Assembly: GCA_044229845.1 (NCBI GenBank)
Contig: JBGASG010000001.1
Span: forward strand, 832,001 to 896,000
Direction of reading: 5' to 3'
DNA from: Candidatus Obscuribacteraceae bacterium
GTDB taxonomy: Bacteria > Cyanobacteriota > Vampirovibrionia > Obscuribacterales > Obscuribacteraceae
DNA: 64,000 nucleotides
Shown here: positions 4,650 to 16,004 of the stretch, piece after piece
Position numbering within the stretch: the first letter of the stretch is position 1
How the letters are laid out: every line of letters starts with the position of its first letter
Notes under the pieces: model-generated
What the model was told of the DNA's origin: nothing
Seen by the model: only the letters and a program-made list of their open reading frames with translations
Database searches by the model: none
Made by a program: the position numbers and the translations under genes

Positions 4650-5252
4650 CTACGGCTTTAGCACGTCTTCAAACATCAATTTGATGAAGACTTCCAGGGG
4701 TTCGGTATCTTTAACTGTTTTGGTACGCATCACTGCTCCGGACCAGCCGGAGAGAAATAGTTCGGCCGCGGCATCGGGAGTCCAGGACTTTTTGATCTCG
4801 CCAATTTCCTGCCCTTCGGCTATACATGCCGACACCATGTCGCGCCACTTTCTGACGACCTGCGATAGTTCTTGACGGAGACGTTCACTCTGGTCGGACA
4901 TTTCCTGGCTAAGGCTGCCAATGAAACATCCGTGTCTACACTCTTTGGCAGCTAGTTTTGCCTTGCCGTCTTCGCAGTAGCTGCGCAGGCGCTGAATAGG
5001 AGTTTCTTTGGGATTGCGCATCATGCGCAGCAGTTGGGCTGAATAATGTTGATCGTAGTGACGGATGATCTCGATGGCGTAGGTTTCTTTGCTGTCGAAG
5101 TAATGGTAGAAGGAGCCTTTCGGAACACCAAGTGCATTCAAGATTTCCTGGATGCCGGTGTTTGAATAACCTTTCTGCTGCATGATCTCCAGACCCACTT
5201 CCAGGAGGGCTGTGCGGGTCTCTTGCTTAGGGGCAGTCTTTGTCGTGCTCAT
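4650..5252 (-). CDS. TetR-family regulator, NemR-like
   Basis: HTH GIQEILNALGVPKGSFYHYF and GCFIG motif. Likely start is ATG 5252, downstream of the promoter at 5299-5327. Confidence 0.88.
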   Translation of the reverse strand: MSTTKTAPKQETRTALLEVGLEIMQQKGYSNTGIQEILNALGVPKGSFYHYFDSKETYAIEIIRHYDQHYSAQLLRMMRNPKETPIQRLRSYCEDGKAKLAAKECRHGCFIGSLSQEMSDQSERLRQELSQVVRKWRDMVSACIAEGQEIGEIKKSWTPDAAAELFLSGWSGAVMRTKTVKDTEPLEVFIKLMFEDVLKP

Positions 5253-5298
5253 ATCGGTGGAATCCGTCTGCTGAGTTGTATGCGTGGACTCTATTAAT

Positions 5299-5327
5299 AG
5301 AATAGACCGGTCGGTCATATGTGTCAA
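5299..5327 (-). promoter_or_regulatory. Sigma70-type promoter with NemR-type operator in the spacer
   Basis: Minus strand TTGACA-N17-TATTCT; operator TAGACCGGTCGGTCAT at 5303-5318. Confidence 0.8.
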
Positions 5328-5399
5328 CGGCCGCTGGGGTCGGTTGGTGGCGTGGGCGCTGCTGGTCTCATACTTCAAAGTATCCACTGGTGCCATGTT

Positions 5400-5672
5400 C
5401 TAGGCTCCGATCGCTTCTTGTTCTCTGTGCAGGAGAATAGACCGGTCGTCTCTAATTAGGCCGTTAAATTTGGCGTTGAGAGCCAGTTCTAGCGGATGTC
5501 TGCGGATCTGTTCTTTTGTCACTCTGTCTTGTTCGTTCACCAGGTGACCGGTCCAGACAGCGCGTAGCTGTTCCTGGTTCTGATGCTGTTTTTCTGGGGT
5601 TTCCGGTTGGTCTTCGTATTCGGGGTACGTTTCGATGCCGAACGTATAGGTGGTTTCTTCTGTGTCAAACAT
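5400..5672 (-). CDS. Small acidic hypothetical protein (90 aa)
   Basis: ATG with a GAGG RBS directly downstream of the promoter at 5709-5737; no recognisable domain. Confidence 0.55.
   Translation of the reverse strand: MFDTEETTYTFGIETYPEYEDQPETPEKQHQNQEQLRAVWTGHLVNEQDRVTKEQIRRHPLELALNAKFNGLIRDDRSILLHREQEAIGA
5438..5453. promoter_or_regulatory. Degenerate third operator copy, intragenic
   Basis: AGAA-TAGACCGGTCGTCTCT matches the other two copies over the left part. Confidence 0.6.
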
Positions 5673-5708
5673 TGTTCTGAACCTCGGCGGTGTTGCTTTA
5701 ATACATCT

Positions 5709-5737
5709 AGAATAGACCGGTCGGTCTAATGCGTCAA
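5709..5737 (-). promoter_or_regulatory. Sigma70-type promoter with perfect NemR-type operator
   Basis: Minus strand TTGACG-N17-TATTCT; TAGACC-GGTC-GGTCTA at 5713-5728. Confidence 0.8.
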
Positions 5738-5851
5738 GTCGCCCAAAAATGAACAGTTAACTCAACTGTAAGGCAAATAGGGTATGGCATATAGCCATTT
5801 TGAGTTCTTTAAGCAGATGCTTTAACTCGCGCGCCGCGCCACTTTATCAGC

Positions 5852-5955
5852 TTGCGTCAGTTTTGATGCAAGCAAGGCAAAATCTGCTTGCGAGATGGCT
5901 CCATAGAGGTGATCGGCAAGCAAAAAACCGGGTTCCTGCATCAAAACTGACGCAA
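5852..5955. repeat. 104-bp element closed by a perfect 19-bp inverted repeat
   Basis: TTGCGTCAGTTTTGATGCA (5852-5870) / TGCATCAAAACTGACGCAA (5937-5955). Confidence 0.8.
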
Positions 5956-6179
5956 TGGTCTTGAATCCCAGGGCGCAACGGACTTTGGAACGCGTACATC
6001 TATATAAAAGGAAGGCGACACGCCGCGGCTGCTGCGCCGAATATATGTCGGCGCCTGGCTCTGGAGGCGACAATGCGTGAGATGACTTCTTCGGGGCACC
6101 GCGTGTGGTGCGCAGGTAAAATCGGTGATACGCTGGCGAAGGTCTACAGAAGCCAATCCCGGAGTGTTGCGCTTTCGTT

Positions 6180-9332: not shown

Positions 9333-10196
9333 ATGGCACCGAGAGCAATCTGGAGCGGCGTTTTAACCTTCGGAATGGTCAGCATTCCAATCAAGCTGTA
9401 CACCGCGACGGAGAACAAAGACATCTCCTTCAACCAGCTGCACAGGGATTGCATGGCGCGTATCAAGCAACAGCGCGTCTGCTCAGCCTGCGAAAAGCAA
9501 CTGGAGTCGGACGATATTGAAAAGGGCTATGAGTACGGCAAAGGTCAATACGTGCTGGTGTCGGACGAAGACCTTGAGAAACTGCCGCTGCCGAACAAGG
9601 GTGCCATTGAGATTTCGACCTTTGTGAAAGCTGAAGAAATCGATCCTGTCTATTACGACAAGAGCTACTACGTAGAACCTGATGAGGCTGCGAAGAAACC
9701 CTTCAAGCTCTTCATGCAGTCGATGCTGAACAAAAACATGACCGCTGTGGCGTCGGTTGCGATCCGCAACAAACAGCGACTCTGCGCGTTGCGCCCATTG
9801 GACGGCACTTTGATGATGAGCACTTTGCTCTACCCGGATGAAATTCGCGTTGAGAAGGGCAAGGCACTCCCGAGCGTTGAGGTGTCCGATAAAGAGCTGG
9901 GCATGGCTGATTCGCTGATCGACATGATGACCGAGCCATTCGATGCCACCGCTTACAAAGATCATTATCGCGAGGCGTTGCTCTCCATTATCGAAGCAAA
10001 ACTGGACGGCAAAGAAGTGGTGGCAGCTCCTGCAGCACCGACCGGCAAGGTGGTCGATTTGATGGAAGCGCTGCAAGCATCTATGGAATCGCTCAAGAAC
10101 AAGAAGAAGACAGACGCCGAGCAACCCAAAGAACCGGTGGCCGCCGCGACGGCGACTGCTGCTTCCAAACGCAGCAAGAAAGCAGCCACAGGCTAG
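9333..10196 (+). CDS. ku: Non-homologous end-joining protein Ku
   Basis: RAIWSGVLTFGMVSIPIKLY, KGYE and VVDLMEAL motifs; basic C-terminal tail. Confidence 0.96.
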   Translation: MAPRAIWSGVLTFGMVSIPIKLYTATENKDISFNQLHRDCMARIKQQRVCSACEKQLESDDIEKGYEYGKGQYVLVSDEDLEKLPLPNKGAIEISTFVKAEEIDPVYYDKSYYVEPDEAAKKPFKLFMQSMLNKNMTAVASVAIRNKQRLCALRPLDGTLMMSTLLYPDEIRVEKGKALPSVEVSDKELGMADSLIDMMTEPFDATAYKDHYREALLSIIEAKLDGKEVVAAPAAPTGKVVDLMEALQASMESLKNKKKTDAEQPKEPVAAATATAASKRSKKAATG

Positions 10197-10222: not shown

Positions 10223-12427
10223 ATGAGCCGCTTGCAAATTGCTGAGCTTGAGAGCGCGCGTAAAGCGCTGTTTCCGTCCGCGATTACGCCGATGCTGGCC
10301 AGCCCGACGGAAAAGCCGTTCGCTTCCGACACCTGGATATTCGAGCCCAAGCTGGACGGTATTCGCTGTCTGGCGGCCGTACAAAACGGCAAGGTGACTT
10401 TGCTGTCACGGCGCGGGCTCAACATGACTCATCAGTATCCGGCGCTGGTGGCCAGCCTGGAGAAATCCGTCGATGTCGATATCATCTTGGACGGCGAGAT
10501 CATTGCGTTGGACGAAGACTGCCGACCCTCGTTCCAGCTTTTGCAGCAGCGGATAAACTTGACGAAACGGACGGACATCGATCGTGCCGATGCACGCATT
10601 CCCGCATACTTTTTTGTATTTGACGTGCCCTTCGCCGATGGACATTCGCTGGCGGCGGTTCCGCTCATGCAGCGCAAGGAAGTGCTGAAGGCGTTCGTGT
10701 CGCCATCCGATCATGTGCGTGTTCTCGATCACTTTGAGCGTGAAGGTGTAGCAGCTTATACAGCGTGCATCGATAGCGGTTTTGAAGGCATCGTCGCCAA
10801 ACGGCGCGACAGTCGCTATGAGATGGGGCGAAGATCGCCGGCATGGCTCAAATTGAAAGCTCAACAGACAGGCGACTTCATCATCGTCGGCTATGCGGCG
10901 GGACAGGGGTGGCGGAGCACCACATTCGGCTCTCTGCTCCTGGCTTACTACGATGATGGCGGCAAGCTAATCTATGCAGGCAGCGTCGGCACAGGATTCG
11001 ACGACAAGCTGATTCGCGAACTCGTAACCCGCTTCGATCCTCTGATTACCAAGAAAAAGAACTTTGCCAAGCCGCCGGAAGGCAAAGAGGCGATCACGTG
11101 GTTGATACCGGAATTGGTGGCAGAGATAAAGTTCATGGACTGGACTCACGGGCTGCATCTGCGTTCGCCCGTGTTTTTGCGTTTGCGTGATGACAAGGCG
11201 GCGACCGACATAACGTATCAGGCTACGTTCGGATCGGTGAAGGTTATGGAAGTCGCCGAAGCATCTACTCCAACGTACGTCGCTGTCAGTGCCGGCACGG
11301 CAGGGACGGCAGCTGACGCGGAAGTGCCCCGGGTGGCGGAATTGCAATTGGAACGCCGCGGGGATGACCGAATCTCTTCGATCATCGAGCAGCTAGGAAA
11401 TAAGAAAGAAACTTTCAGTCTGTTCGTCGGCACCGAAACCATTTCATTGACGACCCTCAAAAAGGAATTCTGGCCGGCTGGCGAGGCATCACCGGTGGTG
11501 ACGAAGCGTGACTACCTGATCTACCTGGCGACCATCTCGCCATACCTGCTGCCCCATCTGGCGGGGCGACCATTGACCGTGGTGCGAGCCCCGAACGGGG
11601 TATTGAAGAAACCGTTTTTTCAGAAACACTGGTTCGACCTGCCGGAGTTTTTCGAGACCACCGGAAAAGTCGATGTGGACGGCGAAGACCAGGAGTTTCT
11701 CCTGTGCAATAACCTGGCCACTCTGTTGTACCTGGGTCAGCACAGTGCGCTGGAGTTGCATACGATGGGTGCGCGTGTGCATGGATTCCAGCCTGGCGAG
11801 GGACCGGCTGGCGAAGCTACTTCCAGGACGGAACCCGGCGAGATAACTAATGAACTGCTCGAGTATCCGGATTTTCTGGTGCTCGATCTCGATGTGCATG
11901 AAGAAGGGCATAAATCCAAGCCTGCGACCACCGCGCGTGAGGCGGAGTTTGGCTGGGTTTGCGAGGTTGCCCAGGCGCTCAGAGAACCGCTGCGAGCAAT
12001 AGGCGCCGATCCCTTCGTAAAAGTCTCGGGCAAGGGCGGCTTGCACCTCTATGTTCCGATTCAGAGAAACCTGGATTACGACCACGCGCGGGTGATCAGT
12101 GAGACGCTCGGGCAGCATGCGACGAAACTGAAACCGCACCTGGCAACCACCGCGTTCAAAGTGGAGGCGCGAGTCGGAAAGGTATATGTCGATACCAGTT
12201 CGAATATACATCGGAAGACAATGATTGCTCCTTACTCGCCGAGGCTCACTGCTCTGGGCACCGTCTCGATGCCGGTTAAATGGAATGAACTTGATGCCGG
12301 CAAGTGGATTCCCTGCCGTATGTCCGACGCTGTGCAGCGTCTGAAAACGCAAGGGGATCTCTGGGAGAATATTCTCAAGTCGCGGGTCGACATGCACCGC
12401 AGTATATCCGGCGCAAATAAATCGTAG
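10223..12427 (+). CDS. ligD: DNA ligase D (ATP-dependent ligase plus AEP polymerase domain, no phosphoesterase domain)
   Basis: EPKLDGIR, LDGEI, EGIVAK and WLKLK ligase motifs; VLDLD, SGKGGLH and APYSPR polymerase motifs. Confidence 0.94.
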   Translation: MSRLQIAELESARKALFPSAITPMLASPTEKPFASDTWIFEPKLDGIRCLAAVQNGKVTLLSRRGLNMTHQYPALVASLEKSVDVDIILDGEIIALDEDCRPSFQLLQQRINLTKRTDIDRADARIPAYFFVFDVPFADGHSLAAVPLMQRKEVLKAFVSPSDHVRVLDHFEREGVAAYTACIDSGFEGIVAKRRDSRYEMGRRSPAWLKLKAQQTGDFIIVGYAAGQGWRSTTFGSLLLAYYDDGGKLIYAGSVGTGFDDKLIRELVTRFDPLITKKKNFAKPPEGKEAITWLIPELVAEIKFMDWTHGLHLRSPVFLRLRDDKAATDITYQATFGSVKVMEVAEASTPTYVAVSAGTAGTAADAEVPRVAELQLERRGDDRISSIIEQLGNKKETFSLFVGTETISLTTLKKEFWPAGEASPVVTKRDYLIYLATISPYLLPHLAGRPLTVVRAPNGVLKKPFFQKHWFDLPEFFETTGKVDVDGEDQEFLLCNNLATLLYLGQHSALELHTMGARVHGFQPGEGPAGEATSRTEPGEITNELLEYPDFLVLDLDVHEEGHKSKPATTAREAEFGWVCEVAQALREPLRAIGADPFVKVSGKGGLHLYVPIQRNLDYDHARVISETLGQHATKLKPHLATTAFKVEARVGKVYVDTSSNIHRKTMIAPYSPRLTALGTVSMPVKWNELDAGKWIPCRMSDAVQRLKTQGDLWENILKSRVDMHRSISGANKS

Positions 12428-12496: not shown

Positions 12497-12525
12497 TTGA
12501 CCGGTTTGTATGCACGATCTACTAT
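12497..12525 (+). promoter_or_regulatory. Sigma70-type promoter of the retron
   Basis: TTGACC (12497-12502), 17-nt spacer, TACTAT (12520-12525); lies 12 nt before the ncRNA repeat. Confidence 0.75.
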
Positions 12526-12537
12526 GACCGGCATCGT

Positions 12538-12694
12538 AGAAGAGTACGTTCTGGATCCGCAATTAGCGGGTGATGGTTGATGTTTCGTCAACCGAGGTGT
12601 GGATAACACCGCCAGACGGAGAAATCGCGCTTTCGCGCCATTCTCCTTGCACCAGGTACTCAAGCAACGTTCTTCAGGCAGAACGTACTCTTCT
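12538..12694 (+). ncRNA. Retron msr-msd ncRNA
   Basis: Perfect 16-bp IR AGAAGAGTACGTTCTG (12538-12553) / CAGAACGTACTCTTCT (12679-12694). Unpaired G12554 follows the 5' arm. Three short hairpins and a longer GGAGAA...TTCTCC hairpin; directly upstream of the RT. Confidence 0.85.
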
Positions 12695-12730
12695 CAAATT
12701 TCCTCCAAACTTCCGTAGGCGGTCGTAACT

Positions 12731-13621
12731 GTGCAAGCGAAAAGCGGCGTTCATGCATTGCAGATGGATCTGGCGTGCATCTCTGTTCATACCGGCGTCT
12801 CACTGATTGAGCTCTACCAGTTTGTCCGGCAGGGCGACCGTCATTACCGGACGTTTCGCATCCCGAAAAAGTCGGGCGGCTTTCGCAAGATACAGGCTCC
12901 CAGTGTTTCCTTGAAAATCGTGCAGCGCTGGATCGGTGCAACCTTGCTGGGCAGCCTGCCGCTTGCCGATGCCTGCACCGGCTATCGCAAAGGTCAATCA
13001 ATCGTCTCAAATGCCGCTCCCCATGCGGGTTCCGACTTTGTGTTCAATGTAGACATCGAACGTTTCTTCCCATCTATTACTGCGCCGCGTGTCAAAGAGC
13101 TCTTCGAGTCGCTCGGGTACAACAGCAAAACGGCCGGGCAACTGACTGCCTTAACTACCGTCAATGGCGTTTTGCCTCAAGGCGCGCCTTCGTCGCCGCA
13201 GATCGCCAATTTGATCTGTGCCCGTCTCGATGAGCGTTTAGAAGAATTTGCCGCGCGCCATGGTTTTGCATTCACTCGCTACTGTGATGACATCACCATT
13301 TCCGGTAAAGGTAGTTTCCGCCGCCGGCAGCGCACCGTATTCGATATCATCGAATCAGAAGGTTTTGCCGTCAATCACAGCAAGGTTCGCCTCGCCTATC
13401 GCGGGCAGCGGCAGGAGGTAACCGGACTGGTAGTCAATTCGTTCGTCAATTTGCCGCGTGAGCGCCGCCGCTTGATACGGGCGATGGTGCACCGTTTCGG
13501 AGCCGGCGAATGTGAGCGGTGGGACGATATGATGCTTTCGACGCAAATGCATGGGCAACTCAGTTATCTGAAGATGGTGCGTCCGGCTGACCGCCTTCTG
13601 AATACAGCCAACGGTCAGTGA
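12731..13621 (+). CDS. Retron-type reverse transcriptase
   Basis: IPKKSGGFRKIQAP, region X NAAPH, DIERFFPSI, LPQGAPSSP, catalytic YCDD and region Y VTG. Alternative start is ATG 12764. Confidence 0.93.
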   Translation: MQAKSGVHALQMDLACISVHTGVSLIELYQFVRQGDRHYRTFRIPKKSGGFRKIQAPSVSLKIVQRWIGATLLGSLPLADACTGYRKGQSIVSNAAPHAGSDFVFNVDIERFFPSITAPRVKELFESLGYNSKTAGQLTALTTVNGVLPQGAPSSPQIANLICARLDERLEEFAARHGFAFTRYCDDITISGKGSFRRRQRTVFDIIESEGFAVNHSKVRLAYRGQRQEVTGLVVNSFVNLPRERRRLIRAMVHRFGAGECERWDDMMLSTQMHGQLSYLKMVRPADRLLNTANGQ

Positions 13622-14082
13622 ACAGCCGCCTTTCTAAATTCATCAACAACTGGACGTTCACTCGCTCTTTGAGTTTGGATTTGCTGCGTTCACTGGGAGA
13701 TGACCAGCTCGACTGGAGTCCTGGACCAGGCGTAGGCACCTTTGCCAAGCAGTTTCGCCATATCGGACGCGTGCAGGAAAATTACATGGCTGCACTTGAT
13801 ACGGGCGTCATTCAATTTTCGACAGCCAACACCAGCTATGGTGGCGGCAGCGATATCGATGCACTGTGCAATTATCTGGCGCAGCTGGATAATCGTCTGC
13901 GTGCCAGGCTCGAAACCATAGACGACGGCATGACGATCGATTGGTTTGGTGAGCAGGTTTCGCTGTGGGAGCATCTCGCCCGCATGGACAGCCACGAGAC
14001 TTTGCACCACGGGCAGTGGATTGTGTACTGTCAGTTGCTGGGTAAACCCTTTCCACCCAGCTGGTCTGTCTGGGGGCTCTGA
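13618..14082 (+). CDS. DinB/YfiT-superfamily protein (candidate retron partner)
   Basis: LDWSP...QFRHI and HETLHHGQ give a His-triad pattern; GTGA start/stop overlap with the RT. Confidence 0.82.
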   Translation: MNSRLSKFINNWTFTRSLSLDLLRSLGDDQLDWSPGPGVGTFAKQFRHIGRVQENYMAALDTGVIQFSTANTSYGGGSDIDALCNYLAQLDNRLRARLETIDDGMTIDWFGEQVSLWEHLARMDSHETLHHGQWIVYCQLLGKPFPPSWSVWGL

Positions 14083-14098
14083 TCAGAAAGCCGGCGAG

Positions 14099-14851
14099 TC
14101 AATCGACCCGCGAGTCATCGATCTTGTCGAAGAAACCATCCAGCTGCCAGATCAAGAGTGACTCCGCATCGGCGGGTCTGGCGATTACCTGCGGCACCAA
14201 TGCATGTCCGGTGGTGACGCGGGGCGGCTGATTGCCGCCCGACAATGATTGCGGCTTCTCCAGCGGGTCCATGCGCCAGAATTCATAGACCACCTCGCCA
14301 AAGATTTTGCCGCCTTTGGCAAATGTTTTGACCGTGATCTGCAATTCAGCCGAATCCGCCCCGACTGCTGCCTGGGGGAGCAGATCGATGTCGTGCACCT
14401 CGAACAGTTTGTTGATGCGAATGCGCACGCCGGGCTGGTTAGGTTCCCACAGCGATCCTGGAGCTGCCTTCAGCATCAGGTGCACTTTCTTGATTCCGTA
14501 ATATGGATCAGTCAACGTATAGTCTGGATCGGAGCGCAGTTTCTTCAGGTTGGTCTGCGCTTCGTCGATGTATACCTGGTTTTTCGCTTCGCGTGCCGCC
14601 TTCAGGAAGTGGCGGGCGGCATCGATGCGCGTGATCTTCAGTTTTTCGTCGAGAGCCAGCCCCTTGTGGTAAAGGTCGGCAGCCTGCGCCCACATGTGGC
14701 GCTGAAACTGATCCTCCGCCTTTGTGAACGTGTCCCATGATTCGTCGATGCCGGCCGACGGGGAACTTGCCGCAGACGGGCGTGCGCAGATAGACAGCAG
14801 ACAGAGAAGCGCTGTCATTGTTATTGCCGGCAATCGGTGCCACGGGGTCAT
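14099..14851 (-). CDS. Exported hypothetical protein
   Basis: Signal-peptide-like N-terminus and a helical TPR-like segment. Confidence 0.65.
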   Translation of the reverse strand: MTPWHRLPAITMTALLCLLSICARPSAASSPSAGIDESWDTFTKAEDQFQRHMWAQAADLYHKGLALDEKLKITRIDAARHFLKAAREAKNQVYIDEAQTNLKKLRSDPDYTLTDPYYGIKKVHLMLKAAPGSLWEPNQPGVRIRINKLFEVHDIDLLPQAAVGADSAELQITVKTFAKGGKIFGEVVYEFWRMDPLEKPQSLSGGNQPPRVTTGHALVPQVIARPADAESLLIWQLDGFFDKIDDSRVD

Positions 14852-14999
14852 AGGTGATGTTTCTCCAAGAGTTCAATACCCGCTGGGCGCTTAAAACGAG
14901 CTTGCGCTAACTGTTGCAATCGCGGGTCTTCGTGCTTTCCCGATTGCCCGCCTGTCTGGTCTGTCTAATAATGTCAACCAGGCTGGAAAGCGAGACGAC

Positions 15000-16004
15000 A
15001 TGTCCGATTTCATGGACCGCTATTTGTCTTTGGAAGCCAAAGACCTGAAACCTAACGCCCCCGTCCTCGCTGACTGGAACGCACCAGTCGAGCGAACTCA
15101 GGGACGCGACCGCACTGCCCGACCGATCAACGACGCGCTGGGGCAGGCGCACAACGTGTCTTATTACGATCAGGCGCTGGACGCTAAGTTGGGGCAGTGC
15201 ACCCAGCCGACCCTGCGCATTCTCGACTTGCCGAAAGACGTCGGTGTTGGTTTCTGGAAGGACGAGAAGGGCTACTACTTCTTCTTCAAGAATGGACAGG
15301 ACAAGAACAAACCGCACTACATTCCGCCCGTGGTCAACAAAATCGAGGTGATACAGAACGGGAAGTCGTTCACTCAAGACCTCGCGCAAGTCAAGCCGGG
15401 CGTCGATCAAGCAGTGGCAGCCGCCGCCAGACCGACCGCGCCCCCGACTCCCGATGCCGGCAGAACCGGCGTTCCCGGTAAAGCCCCTGATGTTGTTGCC
15501 GGCGGACGCCCACCAGCAGGTCGAGGACTGGGCGGCGGCGTGCCCGATGCCGGAGCTGGGCCTCAGGCAGGCGGCACTTCCAAACTCGATGAGTACAACG
15601 GCAAGGGCTGGCACCAGCCTGGAAAAGTTAAGGACACCGGCGACGTCGGCACCGCGACTGCCATGGGCTTCAACCGCTGGGCGCAGCGTGGTGCCTCGGT
15701 AGGCTCTGAGTATTACTTCGGCAAGATGGCGCTGGCGAAGTCGGTCGGCATGGGCACCACAGACGCCGCCGCTCTGCTGGCAAAACGCAACGGTATCGTC
15801 GGCACATTTGCCGCCGGTGAAGTCGGCAAATATGCAATGGACAGCGTGTTCTTCCCGAACGCCAATCCTTCGCTGCGCACTTATCTGATTGACGGCGCCG
15901 CACCAGCTGTGGTGCTGACCGCCCTGCCCTGGTACGGCAAAGTGGGGGTTGTTTTGGGCGCACACCTGACGGCTCGCCTCTGGGACAAGAGCGAAGGCAG
16001 ATAG
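15000..16004 (+). CDS. Hypothetical protein with Gly/Pro linker and hydrophobic C-terminal helices
   Basis: 334-aa ORF with strong GC3 bias; no family recognised. Confidence 0.7.
   Translation: MSDFMDRYLSLEAKDLKPNAPVLADWNAPVERTQGRDRTARPINDALGQAHNVSYYDQALDAKLGQCTQPTLRILDLPKDVGVGFWKDEKGYYFFFKNGQDKNKPHYIPPVVNKIEVIQNGKSFTQDLAQVKPGVDQAVAAAARPTAPPTPDAGRTGVPGKAPDVVAGGRPPAGRGLGGGVPDAGAGPQAGGTSKLDEYNGKGWHQPGKVKDTGDVGTATAMGFNRWAQRGASVGSEYYFGKMALAKSVGMGTTDAAALLAKRNGIVGTFAAGEVGKYAMDSVFFPNANPSLRTYLIDGAAPAVVLTALPWYGKVGVVLGAHLTARLWDKSEGR

Follow-up and report, generated by a model that had tools for sequence, protein, structure and literature searches.

A predicted two-part retron at the 3′ end of a second Ku–LigD operon in Candidatus Obscuribacteraceae

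The window analyzed here, a stretch of 64,000 nt from a Candidatus Obscuribacteraceae bacterium (GCA_044229845.1, contig JBGASG010000001.1, positions 832,001–896,000, forward strand), contains a retron whose ncRNA and reverse transcriptase (RT) directly follow a paralogous Ku–LigD operon. On balance, we favor the reading that this is a genuine and probably active two-part retron, that it is an old 3′ appendage of the Ku–LigD operon, and that the DinB gene behind the RT is a genus-specific neighbor. The locus was compared with 107 genomes of the order Obscuribacterales, among which G000 is the genome of the window. GC content is flat across the Ku–LigD–ncRNA–RT block (about 0.54–0.57), and composition and tRNA scans of the locus reveal no island signature.

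The ncRNA and the reverse transcriptase

The ncRNA, whose a1 arm starts 110 nt after the end of LigD, is closed by an inverted repeat on the plus strand. The two 16-nt arms, a1 (12538–12553) and a2 (12679–12694), are perfectly complementary and separated by 125 nt; the preliminary description had recognized this repeat, and the position of a2 is corrected here. The predicted fold of 12530–12700 has a free energy of −68.2 kcal/mol (z = −5.7), and none of 200 shuffled sequences is as stable. In this fold, G12554, the candidate branching nucleotide of the preliminary description, is unpaired and immediately follows a1, where it is predicted to provide the 2′-OH primer. The msr core (12555–12593) comprises hairpin 1 (12555–12571) and hairpin 2 (12575–12593), and is followed by hairpins at 12596–12610 and 12618–12646, which together with the linker to a2 make up the presumed msd template (12596–12678). 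All four hairpins had been described before; hairpin 1, previously placed at 12557–12569, is longer than it then appeared.

A sigma-70-like promoter candidate, also noted earlier, lies upstream on the same strand (12497–12525, TTGACC-17-TACTAT) and agrees with the consensus at 9 of 12 positions. The candidate is weak by itself, because two such sites per 2 kb are found where 0.9 are expected. Inspection by eye finds TTGACA-17-TAGATT at a comparable place in genus g181. Transcription from the window site would begin a few bases 5′ of a1.

Comparison among genera indicates that the ncRNA is maintained. The sequences of a1 and a2 change from genus to genus with their complementarity kept, and all 11 aligned ncRNAs have the CTG at the end of a1 followed by G-A, which includes the branching G. 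In hairpin 2, all eight base pairs are formed in each of the 11 sequences, and two of them are changed on both sides. A covariance model of the msr core has 34 matches, distributed over 27 of the 107 genomes, with a single copy in G000; by coordinate comparison, 31 of the 34 are about 130–270 nt upstream of an RT match. The region 12596–12678 is little conserved between genera, and the msd is poorly conserved as a rule. Rfam assigns no family to the ncRNA, the sole match being a chance match to mir-21 (E = 6). The element has the features of a retron ncRNA: it precedes the RT in the same orientation, is closed by a1 and a2, has a G directly after a1, and shows covariation linked to the RT.

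The RT (12731–13621, plus strand, 296 residues) contains the NAAPH, YCDD, and VTG motifs, with YCDD at the active site in place of YADD, in agreement with the minimal RT described earlier. It matches Pfam RVT_1 (3.6e-21), the PADLOC retron RT models (up to 2e-87), and NCBIfam retron_St85_RT (242.8 bits; cut-off, 235). RTs of this lineage are very small (281–300 residues), and YCDD and all other catalytic motifs are invariant among 34 aligned relatives. The retron call of the preliminary description is upheld by the ncRNA, the branching G, and an RT of the retron clade, and the comparative data strengthen it.

These data also bear on the possibility that the locus is a decaying or inert relic, in which RT and ncRNA are functionless now and are retained by linkage to Ku–LigD. 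In several species this site has lost the retron or shows it in decay, which, like the negative effector search described below, would fit such a relic. Against it, the RT is intact across six genera at 44–52% identity with invariant catalytic motifs, compensatory changes maintain the msr hairpins, and a1/a2 complementarity is renewed genus by genus, indicating purifying selection. We therefore regard a relic as very improbable.

Contigs from RNA libraries, at least 99% identical to the window, cover 12554–12707, 12681–12831, 13209–13314, 13311–13526, and parts of Ku and LigD. They are a weak hint of expression, as DNA carry-over is possible. Depth is 2–5, and no contig covers DinB or 13554–15200, which at such depth is uninformative on DinB expression. 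One contig starts exactly at G12554, which we take as a coincidence.

In a tree of 139 rows (FastTree), the RT falls in a clade that unites the 34 Obscuribacterales RT rows of the tree with two type II-A RTs (local support, 99). Each of the 60 best database matches checked is closest to RTs of the order Obscuribacterales. On the PADLOC RT models, the scores of the window RT and of 14 relatives range from 219 to 320 bits and are spread over types XIII, II-A, III-A, and XI, whereas true members score 347–651 bits on their own models. On sequence grounds, the RT and ncRNA belong to a family restricted to Obscuribacteraceae, whose RTs are nearest to type II-A/St85 RTs and do not clearly fit any PADLOC type.

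The nearest typed RTs are those of type II-A (St85/Sen2, Ec86/Eco1 family). The two RTs in the support-99 clade score 529–563 bits on PADLOC RT_II-A, and the window retron is laid out as in type II-A, with a same-strand ncRNA that immediately precedes the RT, an a1/a2 repeat, and a G behind a1. In contrast, the window RT scores 276.5 bits on RT_II-A, similar to its scores for XIII and III-A, and has YCDD where YADD stands; in addition, the window lineage is inherited vertically at a fixed chromosomal site. Type II-A is defined by a nucleoside deoxyribosyltransferase-like effector, and Pfam and PADLOC find none among the neighbors of the window retron.

The best PADLOC model for the window RT is RT_XIII (292 bits). 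However, type XIII members score 432–651 bits over the full 469-position profile, whereas the window RT matches the RT core only and lies outside the type XIII clade in the tree. Mestre et al. 2020 (PMC7736814) define type XIII by a winged-helix/SWIM protein, often accompanied by a HEAT/ARM protein, and report moderate vertical inheritance for it, a feature that the window lineage shares. No domains of these kinds were found in the 18 ORFs neighboring the window retron. The sequence features therefore do not place the window retron in type XIII.

The Ku–LigD operon upstream of the retron

The block opens with Ku (paralogue A, Ku-A; 9333–10196, plus strand, 287 residues), followed by LigD (paralogue A, LigD-A; 10223–12427, plus strand, 734 residues), which has ligase and primase-polymerase domains. 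Ku-A matches Pfam Ku (8.6e-55) and TIGR02772 (1e-92). LigD-A matches Pfam DNA_ligase_A_M, DNA_ligase_A_C, and LigD_Prim-Pol, and scores 457 bits on NCBIfam DNA ligase D (cut-off, 373). Both proteins are thus full-length by Pfam and NCBIfam, as in a bacterial NHEJ operon. The operon differs from the usual one in being the second copy of the genome, with a retron at its 3′ end: another Ku, 51% identical, is encoded on contig C18 of G000, also as part of a Ku–LigD pair.

Of the 107 genomes, 26 encode a Ku-A homologue that is at least 59% identical, and in 16 of these, from six genera, an intact RT lies 3′ of LigD-A. In 15 genomes, the RT directly follows a LigD-A homologue, and in one more a single gene intervenes; the only insertion between LigD and the retron is a DUF900 gene in G418. 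Ku-A and LigD-A are always on the same strand as the ncRNA and 110–270 nt from it, and they are the only neighbors kept across the six genera. Outside the interval from Ku to RT, the flanks match within genera and give no tblastx match between genera (E 1e-8).

One interpretation of this arrangement is that Ku, LigD, and the retron form one functional module, in which the msDNA–RT regulates, feeds, or is sensed by the end-joining pair, as a stand-in for an effector or in repair. The retention of Ku-A and LigD-A amid scrambled flanks argues for it, as do three further observations: each of the 16 RTs in the LigD-linked groups sits at LigD-A, Ku-A and LigD-A are extra to the pair on C18, and at least five different genes are found 3′ of the RT versus a single insertion on the LigD side. 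However, all examples are confined to one family, and common descent with tight linkage therefore suffices to explain the synteny without function. Ku–LigD is intact in nine genomes in which the RT is lost or decayed (G443, G445, G446, G449, G450, G416, G419, G469, and G470); RT fragments and the msr remain in G445, and an msr remnant in G443 and G450. Conversely, Ku-A has internal stops in G459 and G462 despite an intact RT. The sequences thus argue against an obligate coupling. In addition, sister groups that share the msr core reside elsewhere, next to unrelated housekeeping genes (one such site is 3′ of gcvP), and no fusion of an RT with Ku, LigD, or DinB_2 domains is found among the best 120 of 1292 longer homologues. 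A tblastn search around 77 RT loci from other phyla finds no Ku, LigD, or DinB, and the same holds for 29 RT loci of the phylum sample.

We found no literature that ties retrons to Ku, LigD, or NHEJ in its titles or the opening lines of its abstracts, and none on retrons in Melainabacteria; the main text of the SPIRE retron survey (PMC13712802) lacks the terms that we looked for. We regard a functional module as unlikely. In the reading that we favor, the retron of G000 would have been passed down vertically with the second Ku–LigD operon, some species having since lost it or let it decay.

The DinB gene and the search for an effector

The gene behind the RT (13618–14082, plus strand) encodes a 154-residue protein of the DinB_2 family. 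Its GTG start and the TGA stop of the RT share 4 nt, an overlap that G472 has as well. The overlap is compatible with translational coupling and may reflect selection, and DinB is probably co-transcribed with the RT. The protein scores 56.8 bits on Pfam DinB_2 (PF12867; cut-off, 24.8) and also matches Pfam DinB. As in DinB/YfiT metalloenzymes, it has three histidines (H48, H126, and H130), which are invariant in 22 homologues. The preliminary description of a His-triad DinB-like gene overlapping the RT stop is therefore accurate; the thiol-transferase role that it mentioned is presumably one attributed to relatives within the DinB/YfiT superfamily.

The preliminary description further proposed that DinB is the third component of a new retron type. 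The ncRNA and the RT bear out the retron call, whereas the linkage of RT to DinB is not conserved across divergent members, an outcome that the description itself had named as refuting its proposal. A DinB homologue is present in 30 of the 107 genomes and is beside an RT in only two, G000 and G472, which belong to one genus. Because the two pairs are 95% (RT) and 92% (DinB) identical, they count as one evolutionary event. Elsewhere in the order, 28 further DinB loci show no RT within about 1.5 kb, and DinB is likewise missing from 28 further RT loci. The tblastn searches at RT loci outside the order are a weak test for DinB outside the family, because DinB is divergent. The window protein is the sole copy of its subfamily in G000. 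In four other genera, the usual slot of DinB is between two genes that are 134 bp apart, without DinB, in G000. DinB occurs in at least three different contexts within the family, indicating that it relocates readily.

Some data extend beyond these genomes. A metagenomic RT (87% identical) and a metagenomic DinB (82% identical) have the same longest contig of 10,013 bp, suggesting that the pair probably extends slightly beyond the two genomes. RT relatives at 62–68% identity are outside the 107-genome set, and the pairing may reach deeper than the count shows; the sizes of their listed contigs do not match those of the DinB relatives at 61–77% identity.

DinB might have been recruited recently in this genus as a third component, either an effector or a stress-linked partner. 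The retained overlap in G472, the relocation of DinB singly rather than inside a block, the probable sharing of one metagenomic contig, and an intact DinB with its His triad are consistent with recruitment. Against recruitment, the pair represents one event in 2 of 107 genomes, the gene is the only copy of the genome and is held apart from RTs in 28 other genomes, DinB relocates readily, and the slot 3′ of the RT is variable. In addition, DinB-fold enzymes are not known to act as toxins. Prediction of an RT–DinB complex gave a score of 0.00, that is, no answer, and counts neither for nor against. Recruitment is accordingly quite unlikely in our assessment. We prefer to see DinB as an ordinary single-copy family gene that would have moved recently, in one genus, from its usual slot to the variable position behind the RT.

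The preliminary description did not count DinB among the described retron partners, and this agrees with PADLOC, which gives no match for the DinB ORF, and with Mestre et al. 2020 (PMC7736814), whose main text has neither the word DinB nor the word ligase, although the supplementary tables may differ. In the one retron paper examined for DinB, the name denotes a gene of the Dionysus system.

The gene 3′ of the RT varies between genera and even inside one genus, where an OPT transporter, MscS, or TonB-TPR gene occupies the position. Around the retron, over about 10 kb, Pfam identifies the 18 ORFs as housekeeping or leaves them unassigned, with no known effector among them, and PADLOC matches neither a 250-residue ORF nor the other neighbors. 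A tblastn search of G000 with the extra, non-RT domains of fused relatives, a weak test, found nothing. By these Pfam, PADLOC, and tblastn searches, the sequence presents no conserved adjacent effector of the kind that accompanies tripartite defense retrons.

Proposed mechanism and significance

In the favored reading, the promoter just 5′ of a1 would yield an ncRNA of about 160 nt, in which the a1/a2 stem would offer G12554 as the priming 2′-OH. The 296-residue RT would bind the two conserved msr hairpins and copy the variable 3′ part, presumably within 12596–12678. The predicted product is an msDNA of roughly 60–80 nt. As a working view, the target of this msDNA may be a factor encoded elsewhere, Ku–LigD being the sole positional candidate. 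A point against this reading is that retrons lacking an effector are not known to have a way of acting.

In most descriptions, retrons are defense systems of three parts that spread horizontally. The lineage described here departs from that picture as a compact ncRNA–RT pair with no recognized effector, and it would provide very small RTs (281–300 residues) with a well-defined msr for the production of single-stranded DNA. The present evidence gives no ground for listing DinB among retron effectors, which corrects the earlier suggestion.

A stronger statement is that this lineage of retrons is functionally tied to DNA end-joining, so that the msDNA–RT controls, or is read by, the second Ku–LigD as a stand-in for an effector. 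We consider this statement unlikely. If true, no earlier retron would have had repair machinery as its partner, msDNA and NHEJ would be connected for the first time, and a functional link to Ku–LigD would give msDNA a new role. For the non-photosynthetic Melainabacteria of the family Obscuribacteraceae, the comparison points to a retron long kept by selection at fixed chromosomal sites within one family, of which one branch stayed with a spare Ku–LigD operon amid reshuffled surroundings. Even if the link is not functional, the lineage would still be a clean natural case of vertically inherited, effector-less retrons.

Retron anatomy and the conserved RNA core

The features named in the preliminary description, namely a promoter-like site, an inverted repeat, G12554, hairpins, RT motifs and an overlapping DinB gene, are all present in the window. 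The promoter-like sequence TTGACC-17-TACTAT (12497-12525, forward strand) is weak by itself, because 9 of its 12 positions match and two sites of such quality are found versus 0.9 expected. The a1 (12538-12553) and a2 (12679-12694) arms, on the forward strand, form a perfect 16-nt inverted repeat. The 171-nt ncRNA stretch folds with -68.2 kcal/mol (z = -5.7), a stability equalled in none of 200 shuffles, and in the predicted fold a1 and a2 form a stem, G12554 is left unpaired, and hairpins occupy 12555-12571, 12575-12593, 12596-12610, and 12618-12646. The RT ORF (12731-13621, forward strand) encodes 296 residues with the motifs NAAPH, YCDD, and VTG. We infer that G12554 serves as the branched priming site and that an msDNA of ~60-80 nt would be copied from a template at roughly 12596-12678.

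In four runs, metatranscriptomic contigs of at least 99% identity partly cover Ku and LigD, the ncRNA (at 12554-12707), and the RT. These RNA-library contigs hint weakly at expression of the locus, because they may reflect DNA carry-over and bear no strand or end information. A single contig from one RNA-library run (X16, 154 nt, depth 3.5) has its first base at G12554, the predicted branching residue, and ends 13 nt beyond a2; as it is one contig, this start is treated as coincidental.

The retron anatomy is conserved, with covariation. Among LigD-linked loci the a1 arms differ (AGAAGAGTACGTTCTG, TGGATATCTCTG, GTGGCATTTCTG, AGCTCCTCTG, and GCATCTCTG); at all of these loci, each a1 is complementary to its own a2 except for, at most, a single mismatch or G-U pair, and has CTG at its end followed by G-A. 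The 40 nt after a1 are conserved and contain hairpin 1 (ACCGC...GCGGT) and hairpin 2 (GGTTGATG-NTT-CGTCAACC). In hairpin 2, all 88 of 88 cells are paired and two of eight pairs show two-sided change; the hairpin has T-A to C-G in genus g174 and G-C to A-T in genome G421. A covariance model of the msr core gives 34 hits, distributed over 27 of the 107 Obscuribacterales genomes. By coordinate comparison, 31 of them are followed 130-270 nt downstream by an RT match; the remaining three are a relic in genome G445 and two contig ends.

Two other conserved sites also have RTs with the msr core in front. RTs of a sister group (loci L044, L049-L053, L056, L058, L060, and L061; RT at about 1400-2400 in each; 43-46% identity) lie 3' of gcvP, the gene for glycine dehydrogenase, always with a convergent zinc-ribbon gene of about 235-250 aa behind; the msr core is seen in at least genera g191 and g173. 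In G000, the genome holding the window, gcvP and the zinc-ribbon gene are direct neighbours without a retron between them (C1:244246-245937). The third RT group (L045-L048, L051, and L093; 46-47% identity) has the same msr core and lies behind a conserved ORF on its own strand, about 318-353 aa long and without a Pfam match; the G000 homologue of this ORF (C18:234950-235678) is far from any RT.

Classification and spread of the RT

The window RT matches RVT_1 (Pfam), NCBIfam retron_St85_RT (242.8 bits, above the cut-off of 235), and many PADLOC retron RT models, the best being RT_XIII (2.1e-87), with RT_II-A at 6.2e-83. Scores on the PADLOC RT models are 219-320 bits for the window RT and 14 family members, several types lying within ~30 bits of each other; typed RTs of other phyla reach 347-651 bits with the model of their own type. 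In a FastTree of 139 RTs, 34 Obscuribacterales RT rows and two RT_II-A members group in a single clade with local support 99. The tree omits L028, which has an internal stop, L091 and L188, which duplicate genomes already represented, and copies of the window itself. Because it was built quickly and its branches are long, it is used for coarse placement only. LigD-linked RTs require two changes on this tree, despite which they may have one origin. Eight RTs from Planctomycetota, Verrucomicrobiota, and Armatimonadota (L098, L102, L108, L117, L124, L143, L145, and L148; mostly small, 293-414 aa as called) form a well-supported clade; their best PADLOC RT model gives them only 263-280 bits, and they therefore look unclassified too.

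Of the 107 genomes, 49 contain an RT match with an E-value of 1e-20 or lower. Close relatives with named records are Candidatus Melainabacteria/Obscuribacterales MAGs, and each of the best 60 matches in a large protein collection is nearest to an RT of these 107 genomes; one carries the source label cyanobacterium, yet matches the RT of genome G482 at 100% identity. A 400-genome phylum sample has no RT of >45% identity, and the best 77 RT loci of other phyla are 33-45% identical to the window RT. Among the best 120 of 1292 longer homologues, no RT fusion involves DinB, Ku, or LigD. A tblastn search of G000 with the portions of fused relatives outside the RT gives no match.

The DinB gene behind the RT

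The DinB ORF (13618-14082, forward strand; 154 aa) starts with a GTG that overlaps the RT stop, and is probably co-transcribed with the retron. The protein matches the DinB_2 profile, has no PADLOC match, and carries H48, H126, and H130, which are invariant among 22 homologues. Convergent to DinB lies a 250-aa ORF (14099-14851, reverse strand) with a signal-peptide-like start and no match in Pfam, NCBIfam, or PADLOC.

A new retron type with a DinB/YfiT-superfamily partner had been proposed, but the link to DinB is not conserved. DinB homologues occur in 30 of the 107 genomes, as a single copy in G000, and adjoin an RT only in G000 and G472, two genomes of one genus. In G472 the RT is 95% and DinB 92% identical and the stop/start overlap is kept; the convergent 250-aa ORF, at 98.6%, is more conserved than either. 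None of 28 other DinB loci (four shortened by contig ends) has an RT within ~1.5 kb on each side, and none of 28 other RT loci of the order has DinB. A metagenomic RT (87% identical) and DinB (82%) have a common longest contig of 10,013 bp; therefore, the pair is probably present in one further close relative.

Genera g174, g183, g191, and g173 have DinB flanked by two genes; the counterparts of these in G000 (C1:143574-144677 and C1:144811-145272, outside the window) directly adjoin, 134 bp apart, indicating that this DinB slot is empty in G000. The empty spacer (C1:144677-144811) further indicates that DinB relocated by itself, as one gene. DinB adjoins a different gene in three more genera. 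Given these several contexts, DinB moved more than once and reached the 3' side of the RT in this genus. Recruitment of DinB by the retron in this genus alone, where the overlap is kept, appears very unlikely.

The Ku-LigD block upstream of the retron

Directly upstream of the retron lie Ku (9333-10196) and LigD (10223-12427), both on the forward strand and both with Pfam and NCBIfam matches. This link is conserved, within one family. At 10 of the 29 RT loci first compared, the LigD primase-polymerase end terminates 110-270 nt 5' of the ncRNA; coordinates and further regions add five more LigD-RT cases. In one additional case a DUF900 hydrolase gene intervenes, the only gene found inside the block. 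There (L188 of genome G418, 4863-6110), this gene, coding for a 415-aa DUF900 alpha/beta-hydrolase, overlaps with the stop of LigD and precedes the ncRNA and RT.

The Ku search is bimodal, with the retron-linked paralogue A at 59-100% identity in 26 genomes and a second Ku at 41-57% beside a longer LigD in many genomes, including G000. The second G000 pair (C18:59103-63720, outside the window) comprises a 51% identical Ku and a LigD with a 973-aa open frame (40% identical), making the pair beside the retron an extra copy.

Behind LigD of paralogue A, the RT is intact in 16 of the 26 genomes, from six genera. G468 has the msr core at a contig end with the RT unseen, G445 has RT fragments and msr, G443 and G450 have an msr remnant only, G446, G449, and G416 have no trace by motif search, and in G419, G469, and G470 the RT is elsewhere or absent. 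Set against this mixture, a single functional module of Ku-LigD and retron is unlikely. The G445 relic (L175, about 5200-5800) has RT fragments in two frames and an intact msr core; in the G443 and G450 relics (L171 and L172, about 5090), hairpin 2 has decayed. Ku-A has four internal stops in G459 (C224:108048-108893) and two in G462 (C6:65746-66576), reflecting either a pseudogene or assembly errors; the downstream RT is intact in both.

Flanks beyond Ku...RT give tblastx matches within genera and none between genera, and the gene 3' of the RT varies (DinB, OPT transporter, MscS, TonB-TPR, TPR-aspartyl protease, ADP-ribosylglycohydrolase, or unknown ORF). The 18 ORFs neighbouring the window locus encode housekeeping or unknown products; the block is uniform in GC content, and a search within 30 kb finds no tRNA.

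The words 'ligase' and 'DinB' are absent from the main text of Mestre et al. 2020 (PMC7736814), and the main text of a 2026 SPIRE retron survey (PMC13712802) has none of the topic terms checked; literature on retrons with LigD, DinB, NHEJ, or Melainabacteria, mostly at the level of titles and abstracts, yields nothing relevant. On balance, the locus is likely a retron with an incidental DinB, inherited vertically together with Ku-LigD.
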